Source of the DNA: Octopus vulgaris
Lineage: Eukaryota
DNA: 64,000 nt
Direction: 5' to 3'
Assembly (NCBI GenBank): GCA_951406725.2
Contig: OX597815.1
Span: 156,984,001-157,048,000, forward strand
The position numbers and the translations under genes are program-made. The notes beneath the pieces are model-generated. The model made no database searches and was not told where the DNA came from. It worked only from the letters and a program-made list of their open reading frames with translations. Positions 3,036 to 35,620 of the stretch are shown one piece after another (the stretch's first letter is position 1; each line of letters starts with the position of its first letter).

Positions 3036-3896
3036 GTGTGTGTATGTATGTATTTATATATAAAAGAAAGGTTGTGTGTCTGTCTACTCCGATTTAGATT
3101 CCTAACTACTCCCACATTTTGCGATGCAGTTTAACCAAAACCGGGTATCTTATAGTCGTGATTCATATCGAGCCCTTCTGGGTATTAGCGCGCGTCTACG
3201 ATGAGTCTATGATTTTACAAATAATTTACCATCATTTTTTTCCATTTTAATGCATATTTTTAAAAATAAACGGAAGTAACTCTCAAACTTCACACCAATA
3301 TGCGTGCTCATATGCGACGTAATATCACATCACCAGCATTTCCTCACACTCTCCTTGCACTTGGCGAAGGCAAAATACCAGGGGATGAAAATGGTAATAT
3401 TGCCATCGATTCCATTTGTACCATTGTTAAGACGCCTTCTGATCTCAGAGATGCAGTGTTCCCAGATTTACAAGCTAATTATCAGAATATGGATTGGATT
3501 GGCAAAAAGGCTATACTGGCCCCGAGGAATAAAACTGTTCACCATATTAATGATGAAATGCTAAAACTCATTCCTGGGGAAGTCGATGTATATCAGTCTA
3601 TCGATACAACTCCTGACCCAGAGGACGTCATCAACTATCCAATAGAGGTACTCAATTCCTTTGAGCACCCCGGACTACCACCACACTTTCTCAAACTTAA
3701 AGTTAGTGCCCCTATAATGCTCATCAGAAATTTGGTTCCCCCAAAACAATGCAATGGCACACGTTTGGCGTTAAGTCCTTATCTCCCACCGTAAGCTTAT
3801 TTCAATATTTGCCTGAATAATCATCATAATTCAGTGCAATCATTAACAGTACTTTCAAGCAATTCAGCCCCGAGCAACGCCGGGCAATTCTGCTAG
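2394..3896 (+). mobile_element. Non-autonomous Helitron copy 1 carrying a PIF1-helicase fragment
   Basis: 5' TC start (tcttattataaaaggcaga) after TA repeat; 3' hairpin cccgagcaacgccggg followed by CTAG at 3893-3896; internal helicase ORF. Confidence 0.85.
3300..3794 (+). pseudogene. Helitron Rep/Hel PIF1-family helicase fragment (164 aa)
   Basis: Motifs AILAPRNKTVHHIN, YPIEVLNSFEHPGLPPHFLKLKVSAPIMLIRNL, CNGTRL are characteristic of Helitron PIF1 helicases. Confidence 0.9.
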
Positions 3897-5440
3897 TCTT
3901 ATTATAAAAGGCAGATTTTATCTGCCTCCCTTTGGGAGTTATAGAAATCTACAATATTGGATTTCTTTAATTACAATTTACCTAGCATTTTTAAGAGTAG
4001 AATGCATCGCGTCATGCCAGGTCCAGTTTTTAAAATTTAAACTCCAATTAAGCAAAATTTACAGAAAACTCACATTCTGGTGTGTGTGTCAAATGCTTTT
4101 CTTAGTCTGGTTTACACCACACGCAAACGCACACACACAGTGTGCAACGAATAAAATGAAAGTAAATAGCGACAGAGTGATTTGAGGAAGACTAAACTGA
4201 AAGTATTTAAACCACTACTCAAAAAATAAAAAAACACAGCAAACAGAAACAAATAAATACATAACCATTTACTCCTCACACAATTTCTTCAATTACAATT
4301 TACCTAAGATTTTTCAGAGTACTTCAGTGAGTGATGCCATAAAAAATGTCTTTCAATTTTACCACCCAATTAAGACAAAATTCGAGAAAACTCAATATTT
4401 TAACATATCACTCCGAAAGCATTGATGTACATGTGTGCGTACGTGAGTGTGTGTGTGTCATTCCTCACACACACGCATACACATACAACTACATACACAT
4501 ACAACTACATACAAACACGTGAGTGTTTGTTATTAGTAAAAAGGCGCCAAAACTCAACTCACTTATCATTCCAACACATTTGCAAAGACACACGGACGGA
4601 CAGAAAAGGTAAATTGGTTTTTATTTTACTCTGTATATATTTTATTATATAATATTATATATAGATATATGTATATATAATTGCAGTATGAAACAGTGTT
4701 TATGTATAAACAGACGACACTTATATATAGTTACCAAGCCGCCCGAATTTACCTATTCATATTTAAATGAGAATATCAGAGCAAATCTCTTTAGTACATT
4801 CGTGAAAACACGTATTATACTTCGTAAACACTTCATCTACAGTTTTGTACAAAAATTCGAAGTGTAATTTTAATTCCGTGAATTATGAGAGATTTTTTTC
4901 CGAAATTTGTTCCTATTGTGTTTTCAAAATTTGTAATTCTGACAAAAAATGGATACGAATTTCATTATATCAAGCAGCGAGTCAGAATTCGAAGGATTTT
5001 CTACTGAAGACCTTCATAAATCTAACTCTATGACTGAAAAAAAAAAGCATCTTTATATAAGAGTGAAGTTGTGTGTCTGTCTCCTACGATTTAGATTCCT
5101 AACTACTCCCACATTTTGCGGTGCAGTTTAACCAAAAGCGGGTATCTTATAGTCGTGATTCATATCGAGCCCTTCTGGGTATTAGCGTGCGTCTACGATG
5201 AGTCTACGATTTAAAAAAATGTACCATCATATTTTTCCATTTTAATGCATTTTTCTCGCTTTTATATAAGGGAAGTAACTCTCTAAAAATATCTACGATG
5301 TGTCAACGATTTAAAAAAAAATTTACCTTAATTTTTTTTTCAATTTTTAATGCATTTTTTTGCTATTTTTTGGCTATAACTCTCTAAAAATGCTTATATA
5401 TTTATTTCCCTTACAACCCGAGCAACGCCGGGCGATACTG

Positions 5441-9125: not shown

Positions 9126-9419
9126 GGATAGTAATTGAAAAGAAATTCGAACAAATAGACATAACGATGCAATACTCCGAAAGGCGGATGGTAACAGCTA
9201 ACAAAGTTGTGATATCTATTTCATGTGTGTATGTGTTTATGTATGTATGCATATAATGCATACAGAGATGGATAGATATGAGCGGTTTTTTTTTTCAATT
9301 ACTGACACACAATGTTGTAAAAATTACAGAAGACTAATATAGAACATGAAAATGAGTTACTAAATTGAATAAAGAAGAAACTATAACAAATAGGCCAGAC
9401 TTTTCTTGATATTATTTCT

Positions 9420-10165
9420 AAGACGATAAGCTGGCAGAAATGTTGGCACGCGGCGGCGCGCTGGGAGAAACGTTAGAACGCCAGACGAAATATTTAGCGG
9501 TATTTCGTCTGTCTTTGCGTTTTGAGTTCAAATTCCGCCGAGGTCGACTTTGCCTTTTATCCTTTCGGGGTCGATAAATTAAGTACCAGTTGCGCACTGA
9601 GGTCGATGTAATCGACTTAATCCGTTTCTCTGTCCCTGTTTATCTCCTTTTTTTAGCGCCTTGTAGGCAATAAAGAAATAAGAAACGTTAGCAGGCCGGG
9701 CGAAATGCTTAGCAGTATTTCGCCTGTCTTTACGTTCTGAGTTCAAATTCTGTCGAGGTCGACTTTGCCTTTCATCCTTTCGGGGTCGATTAAATAAATA
9801 CCAGTTACGCACTGGGGTCGATATAGTCGAATTAATCCGTTTGTCTGTCTTTGTCCTCTCTGTATTTAGCCCCTTGTGGGTAGTAAAGAAATAGGTATTT
9901 CGTCTGCCGTTACGTTCTGAGTTCAAATTCCGCCAAGGTCGACTTTGCCTTTCATCCTTTCGTGGTCGATATAATCGACTTAATCCGTTTGTCTGTCCTT
10001 ATTTATCCTCTCTGTGTTTAGCCCCTTGTGGGTAGTAAAGAAATATGTTCTGATTTCAAATTCCGTCGAGGTTGACTTTGCCTCTCCTCCTTTCGGGGTC
10101 GATAAATTAAGTACCAGTTGCACACTCCCCCAAAATTTCAGGCCTTGTACCTAAAGTAGAAAAGG
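9420..10165 (+). mobile_element. Nested/tandem array of tRNA-derived SINE family B; three units carry a Tx1-like 3' tail
   Basis: Repeated ttctgagttcaaattccgccgaggtcgactttgcctttcatcctttcggggtcgataaattaagtaccag core; tails ending ...taaagaaat at 9679, 9892, 10044. Confidence 0.85.
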
Positions 10166-10571
10166 ATATCACTTCTATCTCTCGCCTCGCTTTCTGACTT
10201 CCTTCTCAGTAATATTCTGCCTTTCTATTTCTGTTTCTCCTTTGCTTACTCTTAGCTCCTTCACATTAAATATACTCTCATTCTTTTTTATTCCTTTTGT
10301 TTTGCGCAATTGATACTTTGTTTAATTTCTTCATTTTTATTTCCCTCTTTTCTCTCTTCTGTCATATCACTACTTTTTCTATATAGAGTTTCTGTTACAA
10401 ACTCCTAGTTTTCTTTCCTTCCACTTTTATTCCCAAATATTCCTCTCATCACATAGTTAACTGTCTATCCATATCCACTGCGTTTTTTCATATACTCGCA
10501 CATAGAAACACATACACACATAAGCGTGCATACACACAAACACTTATGATGGCTCCCGTGCACATGTATGA

Positions 10572-16435: not shown

Positions 16436-16989
16436 GCCCTGATGCAGTACCAGACAGTACCTCACATGGCTTCTGATATTAACTGATTGGCAATGTTATC
16501 ATGTACATTGTTTTGTCTTGGTATAAAAGATGGGCTACAGCAAATAATCTGCTCAATACCACAGATTTACTTGTCAGTTGTTTGAACTTAACCAGTTGAG
16601 CATGTCCCTTAGTGGCTGACGATATGTGCATCTCTAATCAGGAGCAGAAGTAGCGGGGGAGCATCATAGCCATGTGTTGAGAGGGATTCTTTGGGGTTTG
16701 AATAATTCACCTCTGGAAGCATGGGTGTTTCGTTCAACATCCTTAAACAACCCTTATTCAGGGACCTTTAGAGCGAGATGGGCTACTCGACCAGAAGAAA
16801 ATTCTAACTGGGTCCCACCTGCAAGGTCATGCGCTGTTTATCTTGATATGAGATCACCATGTCGTGCACATATGGTTATGATGCATATGCCTGGTATACA
16901 CTTATCAGATGGGTAGTCATGATGGGTACACTAGACTTCATATATTTTATCCCAGTATCACTTTGATGGCAGGCACTGCTCTCTCACTC

Positions 16990-19335: not shown

Positions 19336-19377
<42 letters not shown>

Positions 19378-19378
<1 letters not shown>

Positions 19379-19890
19379 CTTAACTGATTGGAAGTGTTAT
19401 CATGTACATTGTTTTGTCTTGGTATAAAAGATGGGCTACAGCAAATATTCCGCTCAATACCACAGATTTGCTTGTCAGTTGTTTGACCTTAACTAGTTGA
19501 GCATGTCCCTTAGTGGCTGACGATATGTGCATCTCTAATCATGAGCAGAGATAGTGGGGGAGCATCATAGCAATGTGTTGAAAGGCATTCTTGGAGGTTT
19601 GGATAATTCACCTATGGAAACATGTATGGTTCGTTCAACATCCTTAAACAATCCTTATTCAGGGACCTTTTGAGCGGGATAGGCTACTCAACCAGAAGAA
19701 AATTCTAACTGGGCCCCACCTGCAAGGTCATGCGCTGTTTATCTTGATATGAGATCACCACGTCGCGCACACATGGTTGTGATGAATGTGCCTGGTGTAC
19801 ACTTATCAGACATGTAGTCATGATGGGTATACTGGGTTTCGTATATTTTACCCCAGTGTCACTTTGATTTCATGTACTGCTCTCTCACTC
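19378..19890 (+). mobile_element. Non-coding retroposon within (AAT)n, copy 2 (5'-truncated)
   Basis: High similarity to 16480-16990. Confidence 0.7.
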
Positions 19891-22745: not shown

Positions 22746-23424
22746 CTCTCTTTCACACATACTCACACACATGTAAACAAATACATACACATAATGAGAT
22801 ATGAGTTATTTCAGGAGCGTGTAAGAGGTGGTAAGAAGAAACGGTTGGCAGACTTTTGGTTACATATATAGATATACTCACATTAGGCTTATTGATACTG
22901 TAAGACTGAAGAATCTTGAGAAAATTGTTTATTTCTATTGTGAATGCAATTTGCCATTGCTTTGTTAGCTGGTAGATTTTCCAGTAACAAAAAGGCACGT
23001 TTCATGAGAATATCTTCAATACACAGAGAAGATATTTTAATTAATTCGAGATTTAAAGAAGCTGTAAACAGTATGTTTACATACTTGCAGCAGAGGTAGA
23101 AGATGATGGAGGAAGATTAGTCTATAATGAGAGAAATTATCTTTCACTATTGGATTGAGTAACAATGAAAGCAATATATTAAACAAAACAACATCAGTGA
23201 CTGTAAAACAAATAGAAGAGGGAATAGAACTACATCCACTGCGGCGAAGGCGATGCCGACAAAAAGACAGCGTATACGGCAGCAAGAGCAATAATAATAG
23301 CATAGAAAAGAATAACAAAATCAAAAAGAATGAGCATCACACCCAACAGCGCCAGAAATTGTTGTTAAAAGACAATTACAACTCCAAAACTGAAAACTAT
23401 AAGAGGTTAAATATATTCTTTACT

Positions 23425-23617
23425 GCTCTAGGCACAAGGTCCGAAATGTTGAGGAAGGGAGCCAGTCGATTAAATCAACACCAATACGCAACTGGTACTT
23501 AATTTATCGACTCCGAAAAGGATGAAAGGCAAAGTTGACCTCGGTGAAATGTGAACACAGAACATAAAAACAGAAAAAATACCGCTAAGCATTTCGCCCG
23601 GCGTGCTAACGTTTCTG
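23425..23617 (-). mobile_element. SINE family B host copy (body); its 5' head remnant resumes at 27290-27316
   Basis: actggtacttaatttatcgac...gcatttcgcccggcgtgctaacgtttctg, continuing after the inserts as ctacctcgccgc (cf. intact ggcgtgctaacgattctgccagctcgccgcc at ~15280-15312). Confidence 0.85.
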
Positions 23618-25622
23618 ATTTCTTTATTACCCACAAGGGGCCAACATAGAGGGGGACAGAACAACCGGGGAACTTAAAATAATAAAAGCGAATGAAAAAA
23701 GACGAAGAAAATAAAGATAATAATGAGTTATGAAAAGATATTTACAATGAGGTGTAATGCCCACTCGATCCCTGAAATCGAGTGGTTATATTTTCGTCAG
23801 TTTTTTTCCACAGAATTTCACAATTTTACCGAATACATTTTCAAAATACATTTCACAAAATTTCAACAAATATTTTACAGAATTTCAAAGTAATTTTCTC
23901 AATATTTCAAAATACATTTTCCAAATACATTTCGCATAATTTCAAAAATACATTTCACAAAATTTCAACAAACATTTTACAGAATTTCACAATACATTTT
24001 TACAGAAATTCGAAATACCTTTTCACAGAATTGCTAATAGGGTTTTCCTTTAACACAATTTTAGAAAAATTCCAAATCTTGCACAATATCATCGTAACGC
24101 TCTATTGAACGTGGCTGCCTTGCCAATCGGCAAAACGCGTGTTCTAACACGTTCTCTCCGGCGGCCTCAACGAACCCATTGACACTGTCCTCATGAATTA
24201 GAACACTCCACTCGGTATCCATTTTAACTCATGTATGTCCTTTTGTTCTGTTTATTAATTCTTTCATTTCAGGGCAGCTCCTGAATTGCGCTAACATTCC
24301 ATAAAATCTGCGTTGACTATTCGAACCTGTGTTTTCTTTTGTCTTCCTTTTCAGACTTATTTCTTCTTTATTCTCCTCTCTTGATTTCTCTCTTTCTCTC
24401 TTCTTGCTTTCCTTCTTTTCTTTCTCTTGTCTTTTTAGTTCTCTGTCTGTTGTCTCTCTAACTTGTGTCTTTTCTGTTGTTTCTTTTTCCTTCTGTGTAC
24501 TACCTTTTTCTTTCTCTTGTCTCTGTTCTTTCTTTGGTTCGTTTTCGATTGTTTCTCTACCTTGTGTTTTTCGTTCCTTTCCTGTTGATTCTTTTTCGTT
24601 TTCCTTCAGTGTACTGCCTTTTCCTTTCTCTTGTCGTTTACCTGTTGTTTCTTTTTCCTTGAGTGCACTATTCTTTCCATCTTCCTGTTCTTTTTCCTTC
24701 TCTCTCTTTTCCTCTTCTATTGTCTCATTTCGTTCCATTTCTTTCTCCACTGTAAACCCATATAGAGGACATTCTTTTCTTATATGGCCCCTAGTTCCGC
24801 TCAAGTAACAGTTAGGTTTTCTCCCCTCGACGATTACGCTAAGAGTCTTTTCGTTTTCAATCTCAATTCTGAAGGGAAACCTTTCAATATCTTCTGTTGT
24901 GGCCATCGGCCATAAATCTACCCCGTATCCTTTCCAGTTCACTACGTTTGACTCCTTAATTGATCCAATTTCTACTTCTTCTTCTGCTGACCCTAGAATG
25001 GCTGCTGCCAGCCATTCTGTCTTTACTTCAGGGGGTACATTCGGGATTCTGACTCGAACCCCTCTTCTTCCTTTATATGAAGGCCACATCGTGAATTTTT
25101 CGGTTCTTAGTACGGTGGTAGCCAGCGATCTGCAACTTCCTCAGTTGTACACCTCACCTCCACCGTACCAAATTTCTTGCCTCTGCTCACAAAAGTAATT
25201 TTCTCCATTATGTCTCCCAGACATTTCTCAATTTCGTCTATAGCTATTCTTGCTAGCTTCCTTGTACTCCTATCTTGGGTTTTGTAGGTCACTGTCTTGT
25301 TTTCCTTGTCCTCTTTTGTTTTCGTGGGGGGGGGGATTAGCATCACGCTGTCACCCTCCCTTTTGAAAAGTTTCTCATATTCTTTAAGTTTTTCCTTCTC
25401 AAAGAATACTTCTCTTACAGTAAGTGACGAATCACTCTTCTTTGTAGCGACCCCCGCGTAAGTCTCCCTGACTGGGGGTCGACGCTTCTTCTATAAAAAG
25501 TAACGACAAAGTTCCTTCTATAAAGCAACGGCACTCCTCGCACGATTTGATCCCGTTACGTCTTTTTCACAATTTTTCACTTTTTTCCATCCTTCCGAAC
25601 AAAAATCAACGTCCGCCTCTGA
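23618..25622 (-). mobile_element. ORF1-only non-autonomous non-LTR retroelement 1 (Tx1-like), ~2.0 kb, with 19-bp TSD
   Basis: TSD cggcgtgct(a/g)acgtttctg at 23599-23617 and 25623-25641; 3' end ccccttgtgggtaataaagaaat; no RT or endonuclease inside. Confidence 0.8.
24229..25490 (-). pseudogene. gag/ORF1-like CCHC zinc-knuckle protein, frameshifted
   Basis: ETYAGVA...FVSRGKKFGTVEV (upstream frame) then VRVRIPNVPPEVKTEWLAAAI...VEGRKPNCYLSGTRGHIRKEC (knuckle C->S); homologous to the 25975-27102 protein. Confidence 0.75.
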
Positions 25623-25641: not shown

Positions 25642-27289
25642 ATTTCTTTATTACCCACGAGGGGCTACACAGAGGGGACACTACAAACATTGGGGACATA
25701 AAACATCACAATTACAAAGAATGAAAAATTGAATTTTGAAAATGATATTATGAAAGTAATGCTAACGGCCCCTTCCGCTAGCATCACTTACCTGTCCTTT
25801 GGTTTTCACCGTCACTTGAATGTTCATTCCCAATACGAATACCTTCCATATCCATTCTTACTCCGAAATACTCCTCCATATTTTCCACGAATTCATCGCT
25901 CATTCTTATATCTTTCACCTCCCAATTCTCCCTTTCACACCTCACCATAAACTCATCTATTCTCTTCTTTTCAATCACAGCATACCTAGTCTCACCAACT
26001 TCATACCATTTATACTCTTCCTTTTAACTTCTTTCTGTTCTGTCATAGTACAAATGTTCGGCCTGGGTTCGATTTCAATCTCTTGTCTGTCTGTATTATT
26101 TTTTTTCTTTTGTTTTCTTGTTGGAGGGGAGCGGGTGGGTTCACTGTCTGCAGGGATAGGGTGGGACTCATAGGGTATGGGTGGTTTGGGGGTGGATTGG
26201 TGTTCTATGTTATTTTCTTTTCCTCTTATTCTCCTCTTCCTCTTCTTCCCAGCTTCTTTCCATTCCTGTGTATTCTCTTCCTCTTCTACTGTCTCCTTCT
26301 CCTCTGGTTTCTGCTCCTCTCTCTGTGGTTCGGAATCCATTTCTTTCACTGGAGGAGGGCAGTAAGCTCTTATGTGACCCCTCAGGCCACACTTGTAACA
26401 ACGTGGAGCTCTGCCCTCCACCCACACTCTCATGATCACGTCTCCCAATCTGATGCTTTCCGCCAGGTCCACCAGTACCTCGTTCTCTGCCTGCACGTTC
26501 AGCTCCACTGTTACGCCTCTCCAGCCCTCGGTCTTAACCGAGGTATGGAGAATATCCACTTCCTCCTCGTGGCCGCTGATCACAGCCGCCACAATCCACT
26601 CGGCCTCAACGTTTGGGGGCACTCCCTCCACCCTTACTCGTGTAATCCTTCTATTTAGATATGTAGGCAAAAGTGTTACCTTCTCGGATTTCACCGCCTT
26701 CGCCGCCATCTTCCTTGCTGCATTCTCACTTTTAAAATGTACCACTACAGTACCATACTTTGATCCTCGAGTCAGAAAATTAATCTCCTCTTCCGTTCTT
26801 CTCAGCGCCTCCTCTATCAACTCCATGTTTACAACTTCTATCTTCTTCCTTTCGCTTGCGAACACCCTGTATATGATGGTCCTTTTATCGTACCATTCTT
26901 TTCTCTTGGGTGTCGGTGCTAGTTCGACCTCACCGCTGTCCTTCTTCATATATATCTGGTAACTTGGCAGCTTGGCCAAGTCCAGCCCTTTCTCTTCCGC
27001 CTTCTTGGTCACTCCGGCATAGGTATAACCCAGCTTCATTCTCACTGCCTGTTCCAGTTCCTCATCAGTCGTGGACAAGTCTGATAGGGACTCATAGTCC
27101 ATTTCCTTCTGTCTGACAGACCGAAAACGGCCGCCCGAACAGAAAGAGTGTAACGCGTAGAACCAGCGAAACGCGAAACCGCATCAACGACGTTCAAAAT
27201 TCCGCAATAAAATAATTCAGTTTTTGTTCTTTTTTCTTTTTTACCGAATTTTACAGAGCGTAAAAAAACCACGACCGACGTCAAACGAA
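25642..27289 (-). mobile_element. ORF1-only non-autonomous non-LTR retroelement 2 (Tx1-like), ~1.65 kb, with ~15-bp TSD
   Basis: TSD gtg(c/g)tgacgtttctg at 25627-25641 and 27290-27304; 3' end cccctcgtgggtaataaagaaat. Confidence 0.8.
25975..27102 (-). CDS. gag/ORF1-like protein with CCHC zinc knuckle (375 aa; probable frameshifted continuation to 25784)
   Basis: Open ATG-started ORF; RRM-like region, VRVEGVPPNVEAEWI, VEGRAPRCYKCGLRGHIRAYC, WKEAGKKRKRR basic motif typical of L1/Tx1 ORF1. Confidence 0.8.
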   Translation of the reverse strand: MDYESLSDLSTTDEELEQAVRMKLGYTYAGVTKKAEEKGLDLAKLPSYQIYMKKDSGEVELAPTPKRKEWYDKRTIIYRVFASERKKIEVVNMELIEEALRRTEEEINFLTRGSKYGTVVVHFKSENAARKMAAKAVKSEKVTLLPTYLNRRITRVRVEGVPPNVEAEWIVAAVISGHEEEVDILHTSVKTEGWRGVTVELNVQAENEVLVDLAESIRLGDVIMRVWVEGRAPRCYKCGLRGHIRAYCPPPVKEMDSEPQREEQKPEEKETVEEEENTQEWKEAGKKRKRRIRGKENNIEHQSTPKPPIPYESHPIPADSEPTRSPPTRKQKKKNNTDRQEIEIEPRPNICTMTEQKEVKRKSINGMKLVRLGML

Positions 27290-29218
27290 GTGGTGACGTT
27301 TCTGCTACCTCGCCGCTTTCAAAGGTTAAATATATTGTTGTTGGTCAACTTTGATCATGTATATCTACGGTGAAAGCTTCCTACTTACGCTCAATCATTT
27401 CGTCTTCTGTTTCATGTTATATGGTATTTATAATAGCCGACATGTCTGTCCATTTTTTAAGGTAATATGGTGAAATTTCAGGGACATTTGGTTACTATTT
27501 CTAGTAGATTGAACAACCTCTGAGCCTTGTTGCTGGGCTCACCCGAACTCAGCTTAGAGTTATCATCTTATAAAAGTTTCAGGAAGAGCATAATTAGAAT
27601 CGGCCTGTAGTAGAATCCTGCCAATCCTATTACTTTTAATAATACAGAGACCCAATCACAGGCATCAATAAAATATTATATCCCAATCCACATTTAAACG
27701 TTAGCAGCAGGACGCAATCAGAAGTGTCAAACCTGAACATTAACTAATTATCTCTCCTGGTAAGCATACACTCTCAACACGCCCTCATCAGGGCGAGAAA
27801 ATACTTCAACACCAGCACAAACGAGCATCATCACCAACAGTAGGAATATTATCAGCAAAGTTCGTTGATGGAATTTTGTTTAACTTGTGCTGCGCCCTTG
27901 CTCATCAGAGGATAGATTTTACGTTATCTTGAGGACAGCAATTTGAATTTGTTTTGAGGAAAAATTCAGTATAGGGCAGCGATTAGCTAAAAGAACAGAG
28001 AAATATTGATATTTGTCGATCTCGTTCACCTCCAGGTCGAGTCGTTTTGCCTAGTTTTGAAATATTCTGTTTTGACGCTATTCGTTTTTTTGAGGGATCT
28101 CCTCCGGGTGAAATTTCACAGTCTGAAAGTGTTTAAACAACACGCATGCATTGTGACATCGATAGTGTGTGTGTGTGTGTGTGTGTCTGTGTGTGTGTAT
28201 CTGTGTGTAAATGCCTTTCACCACCGGACAAAATTAATTGCTGTGTTTCGTGACGATAATTCTTGTTCCGATTTCAAATCTATTCGATATCAGCTTTGCT
28301 TTTTATTGTTAAAGAACCAAAAAAGTTTATTTCTTCAATCTAAGCATCCATATAAAATAGTTAAACCAGGGCAAACTGAGACAAGTATATAAGCTTTACA
28401 GATAAAGGGAAACAAACAAAAGAAGGTAAAATATAAAAAAAAGATGAGGAAGAAAAGGAATTTATAGATTAAGAACAGTTAAATGCTTCAGTTGTTAAAT
28501 CTTTTTTGTAGCCTCACTGAATTGGAAGATCTTATTTATGGTTAGTGAATTCACCAAATATAAATTGTTTCTCCAGCCTAGGTAGGACTTTTATGACCTG
28601 TTTTAAAATGCACTGCCACTAAAGCTCGGAATTTTTGCAATACAAAAAATACTGATTATGTCACTGAATAATCTTCACAGAACGTACGTGTGATTCCATA
28701 AGACATGTGCAAGGTCGAATAGAGTTCGATTAAACCCATTACAACCCTCATCAACAACATATTCTACCATGTAACTCTGTAGCAAATTATAAATGCTGGC
28801 GCAATTTTTGATTAAATATCATTCTTTCATTGCACAATATTGCGAGTTCAACTCCAACCAAAATCAAGTTTTGTCTTTTCATTCATTTGGGGATCGTGAA
28901 ATAAAGGCCAAAAAATATACAAAAACATCACATTTTCAAGGTGAAAATGTTTCAAACTTCAAGCTACCTGATCATAAATATGTACGTGTGTGATTGTGAA
29001 TGAGTGCACATATATGTATATGTACGTATAGATATAAAAAATAGGGTACTGAAAGGTTCCTCGCTACAAGGACTGGTTGGACGTCAAACCTACCGCGTAC
29101 TTTTCAAAAATTCTTTTTAAAAATGAAGAACCGCTGCAGTAAGTGGGTGAATCACATATTTACTGATCCTCATATATTTCCTTTTATGCAAAGCAGGAAC
29201 TTTTCAACCTTCTATATA

Positions 29219-34330: not shown

Positions 34331-34580
34331 CGAACACTCAGCATATGTCGACATACAGGCTACTACACACACACATACACACACACAAATACGTGTGTGT
34401 GTGTAGTGTATTGTTTTGTGATGGTAAGATCAATAAAAATGTACTACATCTGGTGAAAGATAAATATTATTTAATAAACACAATGTTCTTTATGTGATAC
34501 TATTTCTCTCATGCGATGAAAGTATCTCACACAACATTTTTTAACGTCTGGTGACTTAGGTAGATAATATTTGTCGCCGT

Positions 34581-35050
34581 AAGGCGGTGAGCTGACAATC
34601 GTTACTGCGTCGCACAAAATGTTTAGCGGCATTCTGATTAAAAAATTTTTTTTTTTATTACCCACAAGGGGCGATGCAGAAGGGACATTACAAAACATTG
34701 GGGACATAGAACATAATAATTAAATTTATGAAAAATGAATTATTAAATGAAAAAATGATAATATGAAAGTGATACTAACGGCCCCATCCGCTAGCATCAC
34801 TTACCTGTCCTTCGTACCCTATCATCCATTGTTCTCCCCAATTTGAAAATACATATTCTCCAAGTCTATCGCATATCTTTCTTTAAGTTTAGCGGCATTC
34901 TGTCTGCCTTTAGATTCGGCGTTCAAACGCCGCTGAGGTCGACTTTCATTCTTTTGGGGCTGATAAAATAAATACCAGTTGAATCTTGGGGTTGATGTAA
35001 TCGACTTACCCCCTCCTCCAAAACTGCTGGACTTGTGCCAAAACTTGAAA
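34581..35050 (+). mobile_element. SINE family B copy interrupted by a 250-bp insert
   Basis: aaggcggtgagctg head, insert, then gaggtcgactttcattc...ataaataccag core and tail. Confidence 0.75.
34637..34886 (-). mobile_element. 5'-truncated copy of the ORF1-only element family with 16-bp TSD
   Basis: TSD gtttagcggcattctg at 34621-34636 and 34887-34902; ctaacggcccc.tccgctagcatcacttacctgtcc matches ~25762-25798. Confidence 0.8.
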
Positions 35051-35620
35051 CTAATATTCATCGATGTAAACAAGGCAAATATAATACTCTTTTCTTTATT
35101 AACCATGTAAATTAAAGGCAAATATAATACTAGCAGTTTAGCGGTCAATACTTCTGAGATATTTTTAATAAGATTATGAGCAAAAATAGTATATTTTTGT
35201 TTATTTTCTACGTAAATTTACCACATTTTCCTGGCTCTAGATTAGATTTCTTGAGCAAGTTACATTTTCCATCTTAAGTTAATGATTACATATCAACGGA
35301 AATAACTGTTTTAATATTTTCTGGGGAAGCGGTAGCATGAATTAAAAAAATCAGATAATAGAAAAAAAGAAAAGGAGTGAAGGTATAGTTAAAAAAAAAA
35401 GAAAAGGAAAAGACGTAAGCAGTAAAAGCTTGACTAAATTAGAGGCAAAAAGAAAAGGAGGAATGGAAAAACAAAGGAAAGGAAATAGAGAGGAAGGGAT
35501 ATGGTTAGTAGTAGCAGAACAAACGAGAGCAATGAGGAGGGACGGAAAAGCATAAAAGGAACAAATGCACAGGCGGTAATTTGTTGAAAGTAGTCATTCT
35601 TGACATTGCTAGCATTTACG

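Follow-up and report, generated by a model that had tools for sequence, protein, structure and literature searches.

The closest described system is that of the crocodilian SINEU-3 and SINEU-1 families, which are moved by Tx1-type machinery, with Tx1-Mar LINEs, and prefer a site in an abundant transposon (Kojima 2015, PMC4494074). The sections of that paper used here give target preferences of 90 %, 23 % and 13 % for three families and record tandem insertions. The SINE found in Octopus vulgaris has in common with these a site preference within a transposon and the occurrence of tandem insertions. However, SINEU inserts into a Mariner DNA transposon, with tandem copies that sandwich a duplication, whereas the octopus SINE targets its own family, at two sites, and the head of the host copy is usually gone. 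Mechanistic precedents, in which RNA or cDNA containing target sequence anneals to the target, come from R1-type elements. For R1A in the melanogaster group, annealing of this kind has been proposed to delete the target precisely where the 5′ junction forms (Stage and Eickbush 2009, PMC2718515, in the part consulted), and for R1Bm and SART1 annealing at the 3′ side, with accurate priming at the 3′ junction, has been proposed in the available text of PMC7265360. R1 and SART1 are autonomous, reside in rDNA or telomeres and are associated with 9-bp deletions, whereas the octopus SINE is non-autonomous and would replace 16-49 bp of the head of a relative at dispersed loci numbering in the tens of thousands.

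In the L1 clade, SINE/LINE pairs with a shared tail have also been described, and only three such SINEs were counted in the relevant part of Ohshima 2013 (PMC3747384). As in these pairs, the 3′ end of the octopus SINE is LINE-derived, but the pairs in that source are from plants and algae, whereas the octopus pair lacks a poly(A) tail and is self-targeting. A recent octopus repeat annotation lists active L1-Tx1 families (PMC13282606). The word 'nested' is absent from its main text, and its supplements and Repbase may hold the families described here. A self-targeting array system is unmentioned in the portions consulted of PMC4758252, PMC4824008 and PMC5804259. The octopus SINE families OK, OR1 and OR2 and the conserved-domain superfamilies Nin/Deu, Meta and CORE appear in the literature consulted as names only, with no sequences. 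No description of a self-targeting, head-replacing SINE was found in the open full-text literature, which does not include subscription journals or the paper that first described octopus SINEs.

The octopus SINE array system is a real and unusual variant of these SINE/LINE targeting systems. The explanation we favour, and consider fairly probable, is that LINE enzymes insert the SINE at fixed bases (mostly base 50, less often base 17) of older relatives, and that the new cDNA replaces the homologous head of the host.

The SINE is short, non-coding, interspersed and present in high copy number. The consensus, 233 nt in length, was made from 49 full-length copies. A putative assignment as a tRNA-type SINE is based on an A-box-like TGGCAGAAACGTTAG and a B-box-like GAGTTCAAATTCC in the head, identified by visual comparison with the usual motifs; neither ARAGORN nor Rfam yielded a tRNA or any significant hit. 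The LINE-type tail has 99,045 exact matches in the genome and the reversed-pattern control has none, hence the matches are not due to chance. The distance from base 50 to the end of the SINE is 184 nt, and this spacing recurs among the tail matches. Target-site duplications, variable in length but mostly 10-18 bp, were detected at 72 of 141 loci compared with 12 of 421 shifted controls. Loci that had been picked by their flank (L031-L047 and L188-L217) were left out of the duplication, flank and junction parse. Hairpins in the SINE tail were no better than those of shuffled sequences (z of -0.44, 0.24 and 0.08), and a hairpin with a loop bordering base 50 is stable (z=-2.6).

In the window, defined as the whole 64,000-nucleotide stretch of DNA that was analysed, the array extends from 9420 to 10164 on the forward strand when read against this consensus. 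Immediately before it (9408-9419, 10 of 12 bases identical to 10165-10176) is the upstream member of the target-site duplication that flanks the oldest host SINE, the one with the ordinary tail. The first segment is a stacked host head (9420-9451, consensus 1-32, 6 mismatches in 32 bases), the last 16 nt of which (9436-9451) are a duplication of 9681-9696. Unit 1 (9452-9680) is a full-length LINE-tailed SINE covering consensus 3-233, with the GGCAAT tail variant, and is located at site 17. Unit 2 (9681-9893) covers consensus 17-233, ends in a LINE tail of the GGGTAGT variant followed by site 50, and contains the hairpin with the loop bordering that site. Unit 3 (9894-10045) belongs to the 184-nt unit class and consists of consensus 50-233, less a 32-nt deletion, with a LINE tail. 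Unit 4 (10046-10164) runs from consensus 69 onward to an ordinary (O1) tail and is likely to be the oldest host of the array.

The three LINE tails stop at 9679, 9892 and 10044, each plus a terminal A. A first-pass annotation of this DNA had matched them to the 3′ ends of two elements at 23618 and 25642 and had noted the ordinary tail of the last unit. Both observations are real, with 78-87 % identity between the tails over approximately 40 nt. The same annotation had placed the first junction at the site occupied by the ORF1-only elements at 23.6-27.3 kb, and junction 1 is indeed at AGAAACG, the site of both of these elements, with a 16-bp duplication (13 of 16 bases identical). Junctions 2 and 3 lie elsewhere, at sites 50 and 69, with no host head upstream. 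Near-identical units, suggested as a sign of unequal crossover, are not what is seen here, and as the units differ pairwise by 7-14 % the array is not a recent tandem duplication. Junction 1 is one of the rare classical nested cases (stacked heads at site 17 number five), and the window array belongs to, and typifies, a genome-wide class.

The frequency with which tails adjoin another SINE was determined in an unbiased sample of 60 evenly spaced 10-kb stretches (600 kb). LINE-tailed (T) units ran into a SINE body in 20 of 41 cases, compared with 3 of 42 for ordinary tails (p=2e-5), the latter made up of 3 of 18 for O1 and 0 of 24 for the second ordinary type, O2. About half of the T copies are thus solitary and half are in junctions, and the expectation that tail-bearing copies insert preferentially into their own kind is borne out. 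The proportion also exceeds the >20 % of flanks that defines a target-specific element in the portion of PMC4494074 used here. The 20 T junctions comprise 17 at base 50, two at base 50 with a short slip and one at base 17. In the whole set of body hits, 34 of 366 had unclassified tails and were dropped. Genome-wide, exact T junctions number 36,853 for base 50, compared with 2,635 for base 17, and the O1 tail meets base 50 in seven exact junctions among 6,425 exact O1 tails, though ratios of these counts are approximate because the junction patterns are unequal in length. The main site is therefore not site 17 in the head, which the first-pass annotation had named, but base 50, which is about 14 times commoner. 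Fixed junctions had been thought to indicate crossover; they do not count against retroposition here, and there is good support for the view that the SINE inserts into older relatives at a fixed base.

Most of these arrays are not nested in the classical sense. Stacked heads number 336 at base 50 genome-wide, in addition to the five at site 17. Among 30 of the base-50 loci examined, 16 had a clear host head, with duplications mostly of 15-17 bp, and several duplicate host-private variants over 15-17 bp. These cases are ordinary target-primed insertions into a SINE. However, classical nested copies with 15-17-bp duplications account for only about 1 %. Of 138 arrays in which the first head is intact, just two have a second head, the host head being absent from the other 136, and the earlier description of the arrays as nested is therefore rarely accurate. 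A single duplication surrounds the whole array in 25 of 52 T-ended and 26 of 49 O1-ended arrays.

Divergence was used to date the parts of these arrays. The last O1 units do not differ in divergence from solitary O1 copies (0.066 versus 0.073, p=0.65) and are star-like, with a pairwise distance of 0.137. Within arrays, the first unit is less diverged than the last O1 unit (0.036 versus 0.065, paired p=7e-8, n=63). The heads of site-50 dimers have a divergence of 0.072 (n=22), comparable to that of solitary T inserts (0.083, p=0.39) and half that of solitary O1 copies (0.144, p=0.001), and they are insert-like along bases 4-49. Mismatch in the duplications of O1-ended arrays is 5.7 %, between the young (3.7-3.9 %) and old (9.1 %, 77 bases) values. 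As the last O1 unit is as old as a solitary copy and the lone head is as young as an insert, the ordinary-tailed downstream unit is likely to be an old host whose head was replaced by the incoming cDNA.

The sequence of events that we envisage would begin with insertion by the LINE enzymes, as indicated by the shared tail, the 10-18-bp target duplications and the nested base-50 insertions that duplicate host-private variants. The targets would be older copies, since divergence shows the ordinary-tailed downstream units to be as old as solitary copies and the lone head to be as young as an insert. The end of the cDNA would then anneal to the upstream head of the host and overwrite it, which would leave one head followed by 184-nt (or 217-nt) units inside the old duplication of the host. 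Such an insertion would create a further target site without supplying a promoter, and the positive-feedback amplification loop proposed in the first-pass annotation is at present hypothetical.

A single head and a single duplication around an array, together with the hairpin at the junction, are also what would be seen if arrays were assembled at the RNA level, either by template switching of the reverse transcriptase at the base-50 hairpin or by amplification of a few read-through dimer masters via the terminal tail. This is quite improbable, as the ordinary units that end the arrays match solitary copies in both age and diversity, and include very old O2 units (0.134), and true DNA insertions at base 50 exist. 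In addition, the host at the window locus is common to organism C. At the orthologous site in organism C, four more bases of the 9408-9419 duplication are followed by a SINE head (5′ flank, from two studies), and the O1 tail of unit 4 and the 3′ flank are on one single-copy contig. Alignment of organism C contigs to the array as a whole was dominated by paralogues and gave none that bridges the repeat, so that an empty site was not seen directly. Relative to the body, the T tail has a summed depth of 0.016 in organism C and of 0.16-0.19 in two closer runs, where depth does not equate to copy number.

Alternatively, the heads could have been lost after insertion. One or more Tx1-type LINE families may nick SINE bases 17 and 50, with the SINE following passively and the stacked heads deleted later between direct repeats. 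Random deletion is expected to leave mixed heads, whereas the heads found are insert-like along bases 4-49, and this favours loss during rather than after insertion. Head replacement in the course of insertion is thus likely. If true on this scale, SINE copies could not always be treated as insertions that are independent and irreversible, which bears on the dating of repeat bursts and on SINE-based markers in cephalopods.

Targeting by the endonuclease alone can also be assessed from the landing sites. Targeting of other transposons by Tx1 families has been documented (in the part of PMC4494074 consulted), the ORF1-only passengers at site 17 have clean 17-18-bp duplications, and the stable hairpin loop that borders site 50 could be a feature that is recognized. 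Intact SINE sites make up only 55 of 935 GGTAT words, hence more than five bases, or the hairpin at base 50, must contribute to the choice of site, as would be the case for an enzyme that reads a longer sequence. However, the landing motif is found only 3′ of the junction. On the 5′ side of the nick, including at non-SINE targets, there is no consensus other than depletion of G at position -1. Furthermore, subfamilies that differ by two bases in the tail have different motifs, and no LINE with the tail form of the young LINE described below was found at site 17 or 50. Taken with the insert-like heads, these points make it rather unlikely that the endonuclease alone is responsible.

The association between tail and flank is strong. 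GGGCAAT tails are followed by AGA in 9,543 cases and by GGT in 1,453, and GGGTAGT tails by AGA in 1,385 and by GGT in 48,854, giving an odds ratio of approximately 230 for the two-base tail difference versus the first three bases of the flank. The link persists in non-SINE flanks (41:5 versus 6:28, p=6e-11), and a third class inserts in TATA repeats. Host bases 50-56 are nearly invariant, with mismatches in 3 of 285 compared with 53 of 458 in controls. Further into the host, the insert-type G65 was enriched (13 of 41 hosts versus 8 of 67; uncorrected p=0.02 for one position out of the five that were tested). Host-derived sequence up to base 65 was considered and rejected, as concordance at bases 63-64 between first and second units in ordinary-tailed hosts was at chance (6 of 27).

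The dependence of the flank motif on the SINE subfamily suggests that read-through RNA primes insertion. As the SINE has neither a poly(A) tail nor a terminator of its own, its transcript would extend beyond the tail and include bases that flank the parent copy (GGUAUUU or AGAAAC). In this less firm part of the scheme, the read-through flank would pair with the nicked target, such that a subfamily inherits the landing motif of its parent, and the best match would be another SINE. Priming by read-through RNA was examined by asking whether the downstream duplication is corrected toward the expected flank or not. An asymmetry of 10:1 (p=0.012) in 16 loci became 21:11 (p=0.11) in a larger set, and for the AGAAAC class it was 2:4, in the opposite direction. 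Different LINE enzymes active at different times could also be the source of the link between subfamily and flank. Target choice inherited via the RNA is, by itself, plausible but unproven. We regard as tentative, and somewhat doubtful, the full proposal of SINE retrohoming, in which target choice would be RNA-inherited via the landing-site bases and copies would overwrite the promoter heads of relatives at tens of thousands of sites. Target specificity switches often among Tx1-type elements, and a SINE with approximately 100,000 copies, in which subfamilies two bases apart have different motifs, allows a direct test of whether such specificity is guided by the RNA or coded in the enzyme.

Tail-bearing copies were also found repeatedly in two other repeat families (L009, L012, L015, L023, L024 and L046). 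The sites in these families are GGTACTGGC-like and GGAAACTG-like, and resemble the two SINE motifs.

A proportion of the arrays has been lengthened by later local duplication, as 16 of 78 adjacent T-T pairs share at least two rare variants, compared with 5 of 2,869 random pairs, and the median distance within adjacent pairs is 0.065 rather than 0.103. Local duplication would thus be the final step of the scheme, multiplying some of the tail-to-tail units. The same figures are those expected if unequal crossover or slippage alone had produced the 184-nt arrays. However, these pairs are a minority, the distances in the remaining T-T pairs equal those of random copies, and the units in the window are likewise 7-14 % apart. 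Moreover, neither process is able to place a LINE-tailed unit next to one with an ordinary tail, and such junctions were present in 79 of 397 parsed loci, a tally that does not represent a frequency because some of the loci had been selected for sites 17 and 50. Unequal crossover as the sole cause is refuted by these junctions, and the chance that crossover or slippage alone accounts for the arrays is very slight; it remains as a secondary process. Ordinary-tailed SINE fragments are also found in rare tandem arrays, with periods of 101 nt and 170 nt (G000:C1:15779651-15780178 and C24:32712915-32713283).

The source of the tail was traced to a LINE. The intact copy L306 (G000:C3) encodes ORF1, with a CCHC knuckle that is weak (zf-CCHC, 0.051), and a 1,131-aa ORF2 with an APE endonuclease, a reverse transcriptase and a C-terminal zinc motif (Pfam Exo_endo_phos, 1.5e-13; RVT_1, 1.4e-30; zf-RVT, 1.4e-8). 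The best solved relative is L1 ORF2p (6.7e-65) and the nearest named relative of the LINE is from Argonauta. The last ~45 nt of L306 are nearly identical to those of the SINE, and a further 13-nt block is shared 5′ of this, across a 10-11-nt gap. Judged from these alignments, the SINE tail belongs to an autonomous lineage of L1/Tx1-type LINEs, and capture of the tail by the SINE, as first suggested, is supported. We take the LINE to be putatively of the Tx1 type from its architecture and its target preference; there was no named Tx1 reference among the homologue hits examined, and the names of the homologues did not settle membership.

The flanks suggest that the LINE lineage that carried the SINE is distinct from the young LINE found here. 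Among 29 readable 3′ flanks of the young LINE, 22 are in an ORF1-like repeat, five are its own 5′ end, two are other sequences and none is a SINE site. The young LINE thus lacks the target motif of the SINE, and the shared target expected of a partner LINE was not seen for it. Its tail form had no matches at site 17, and three matches at site 50 were SINE variants. A search from one truncated tail variant reached only further ORF1-type elements. These 22 of 29 flanks are at a single site in the ORF1-like repeat, which is decayed, and the shared tail is thereby found in a second system with site specificity. Intact LINE copies also occur in tandem, with a period of ~5.26 kb (L276-L307, e.g. G000:C3:34854000-34870000).

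Half-L1 (HAL1) elements encode only ORF1. Similarly, the two elements at 23.6-27.3 kb in the window encode only an ORF1 homologue, and they share the LINE tail, but, in contrast to HAL1, the octopus ORF1-only elements stack head to tail, with a period of ~1.75 kb, at defined sites. They had been proposed as the machinery responsible for the arrays. As they encode no enzyme they are passengers, and the tail comes from the autonomous LINE. All parts of this locus are on the reverse strand. The 3′ part of the host SINE, from site 17 onward and with an ordinary tail, is at 23420-23617. Element 1 (23618-25622, 5′ end approximate) has the shared tail and a 286-aa ORF (24229-25089). Element 2 (25642-27285) has a 375-aa ORF (25975-27102) with a CCHC knuckle, and its protein is 36 % identical to the ORF1 protein of the LINE. 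The two elements are separated by an 18-bp target duplication. The host SINE head (bases 1-16) and the upstream 18-bp duplication are at 27286-27320, and this head was retained because the ORF1-only inserts have no homology to it.

The family of element 2 is young, the 150 best hits being 87-100 % identical and nearly all without stop codons. It forms head-to-tail arrays with the ~1.75-kb period, of up to 13 copies and often ending in a full LINE (G000:C2:138771236-138793000, C17:67745017-67759573 and others, L128-L157, L274 and L275). Some ORF1-only tails (L142-L154) contain TCCGCCAT, the reverse complement of the frequent flank ATGGCGGA; a match of this kind between tail and own flank was not apparent by eye in the SINE tail. 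In the window, a 5′-truncated ORF1-only element (~34640-34886, reverse strand) lies antisense in a SINE (34580-35060), near base 57, with a 13-bp duplication and the target AGAAT on the element strand.

The repeat finder applied to the window was swamped by microsatellites. A 164-aa ORF at 3300-3794 resembles a helicase fragment of a rolling-circle transposon. Dispersed repeat pairs that are 92-97 % identical were found at 16476-16775 and 19377-19676, at 2394-2662 and 3897-4165, and at 3052-3221 and 5049-5218.
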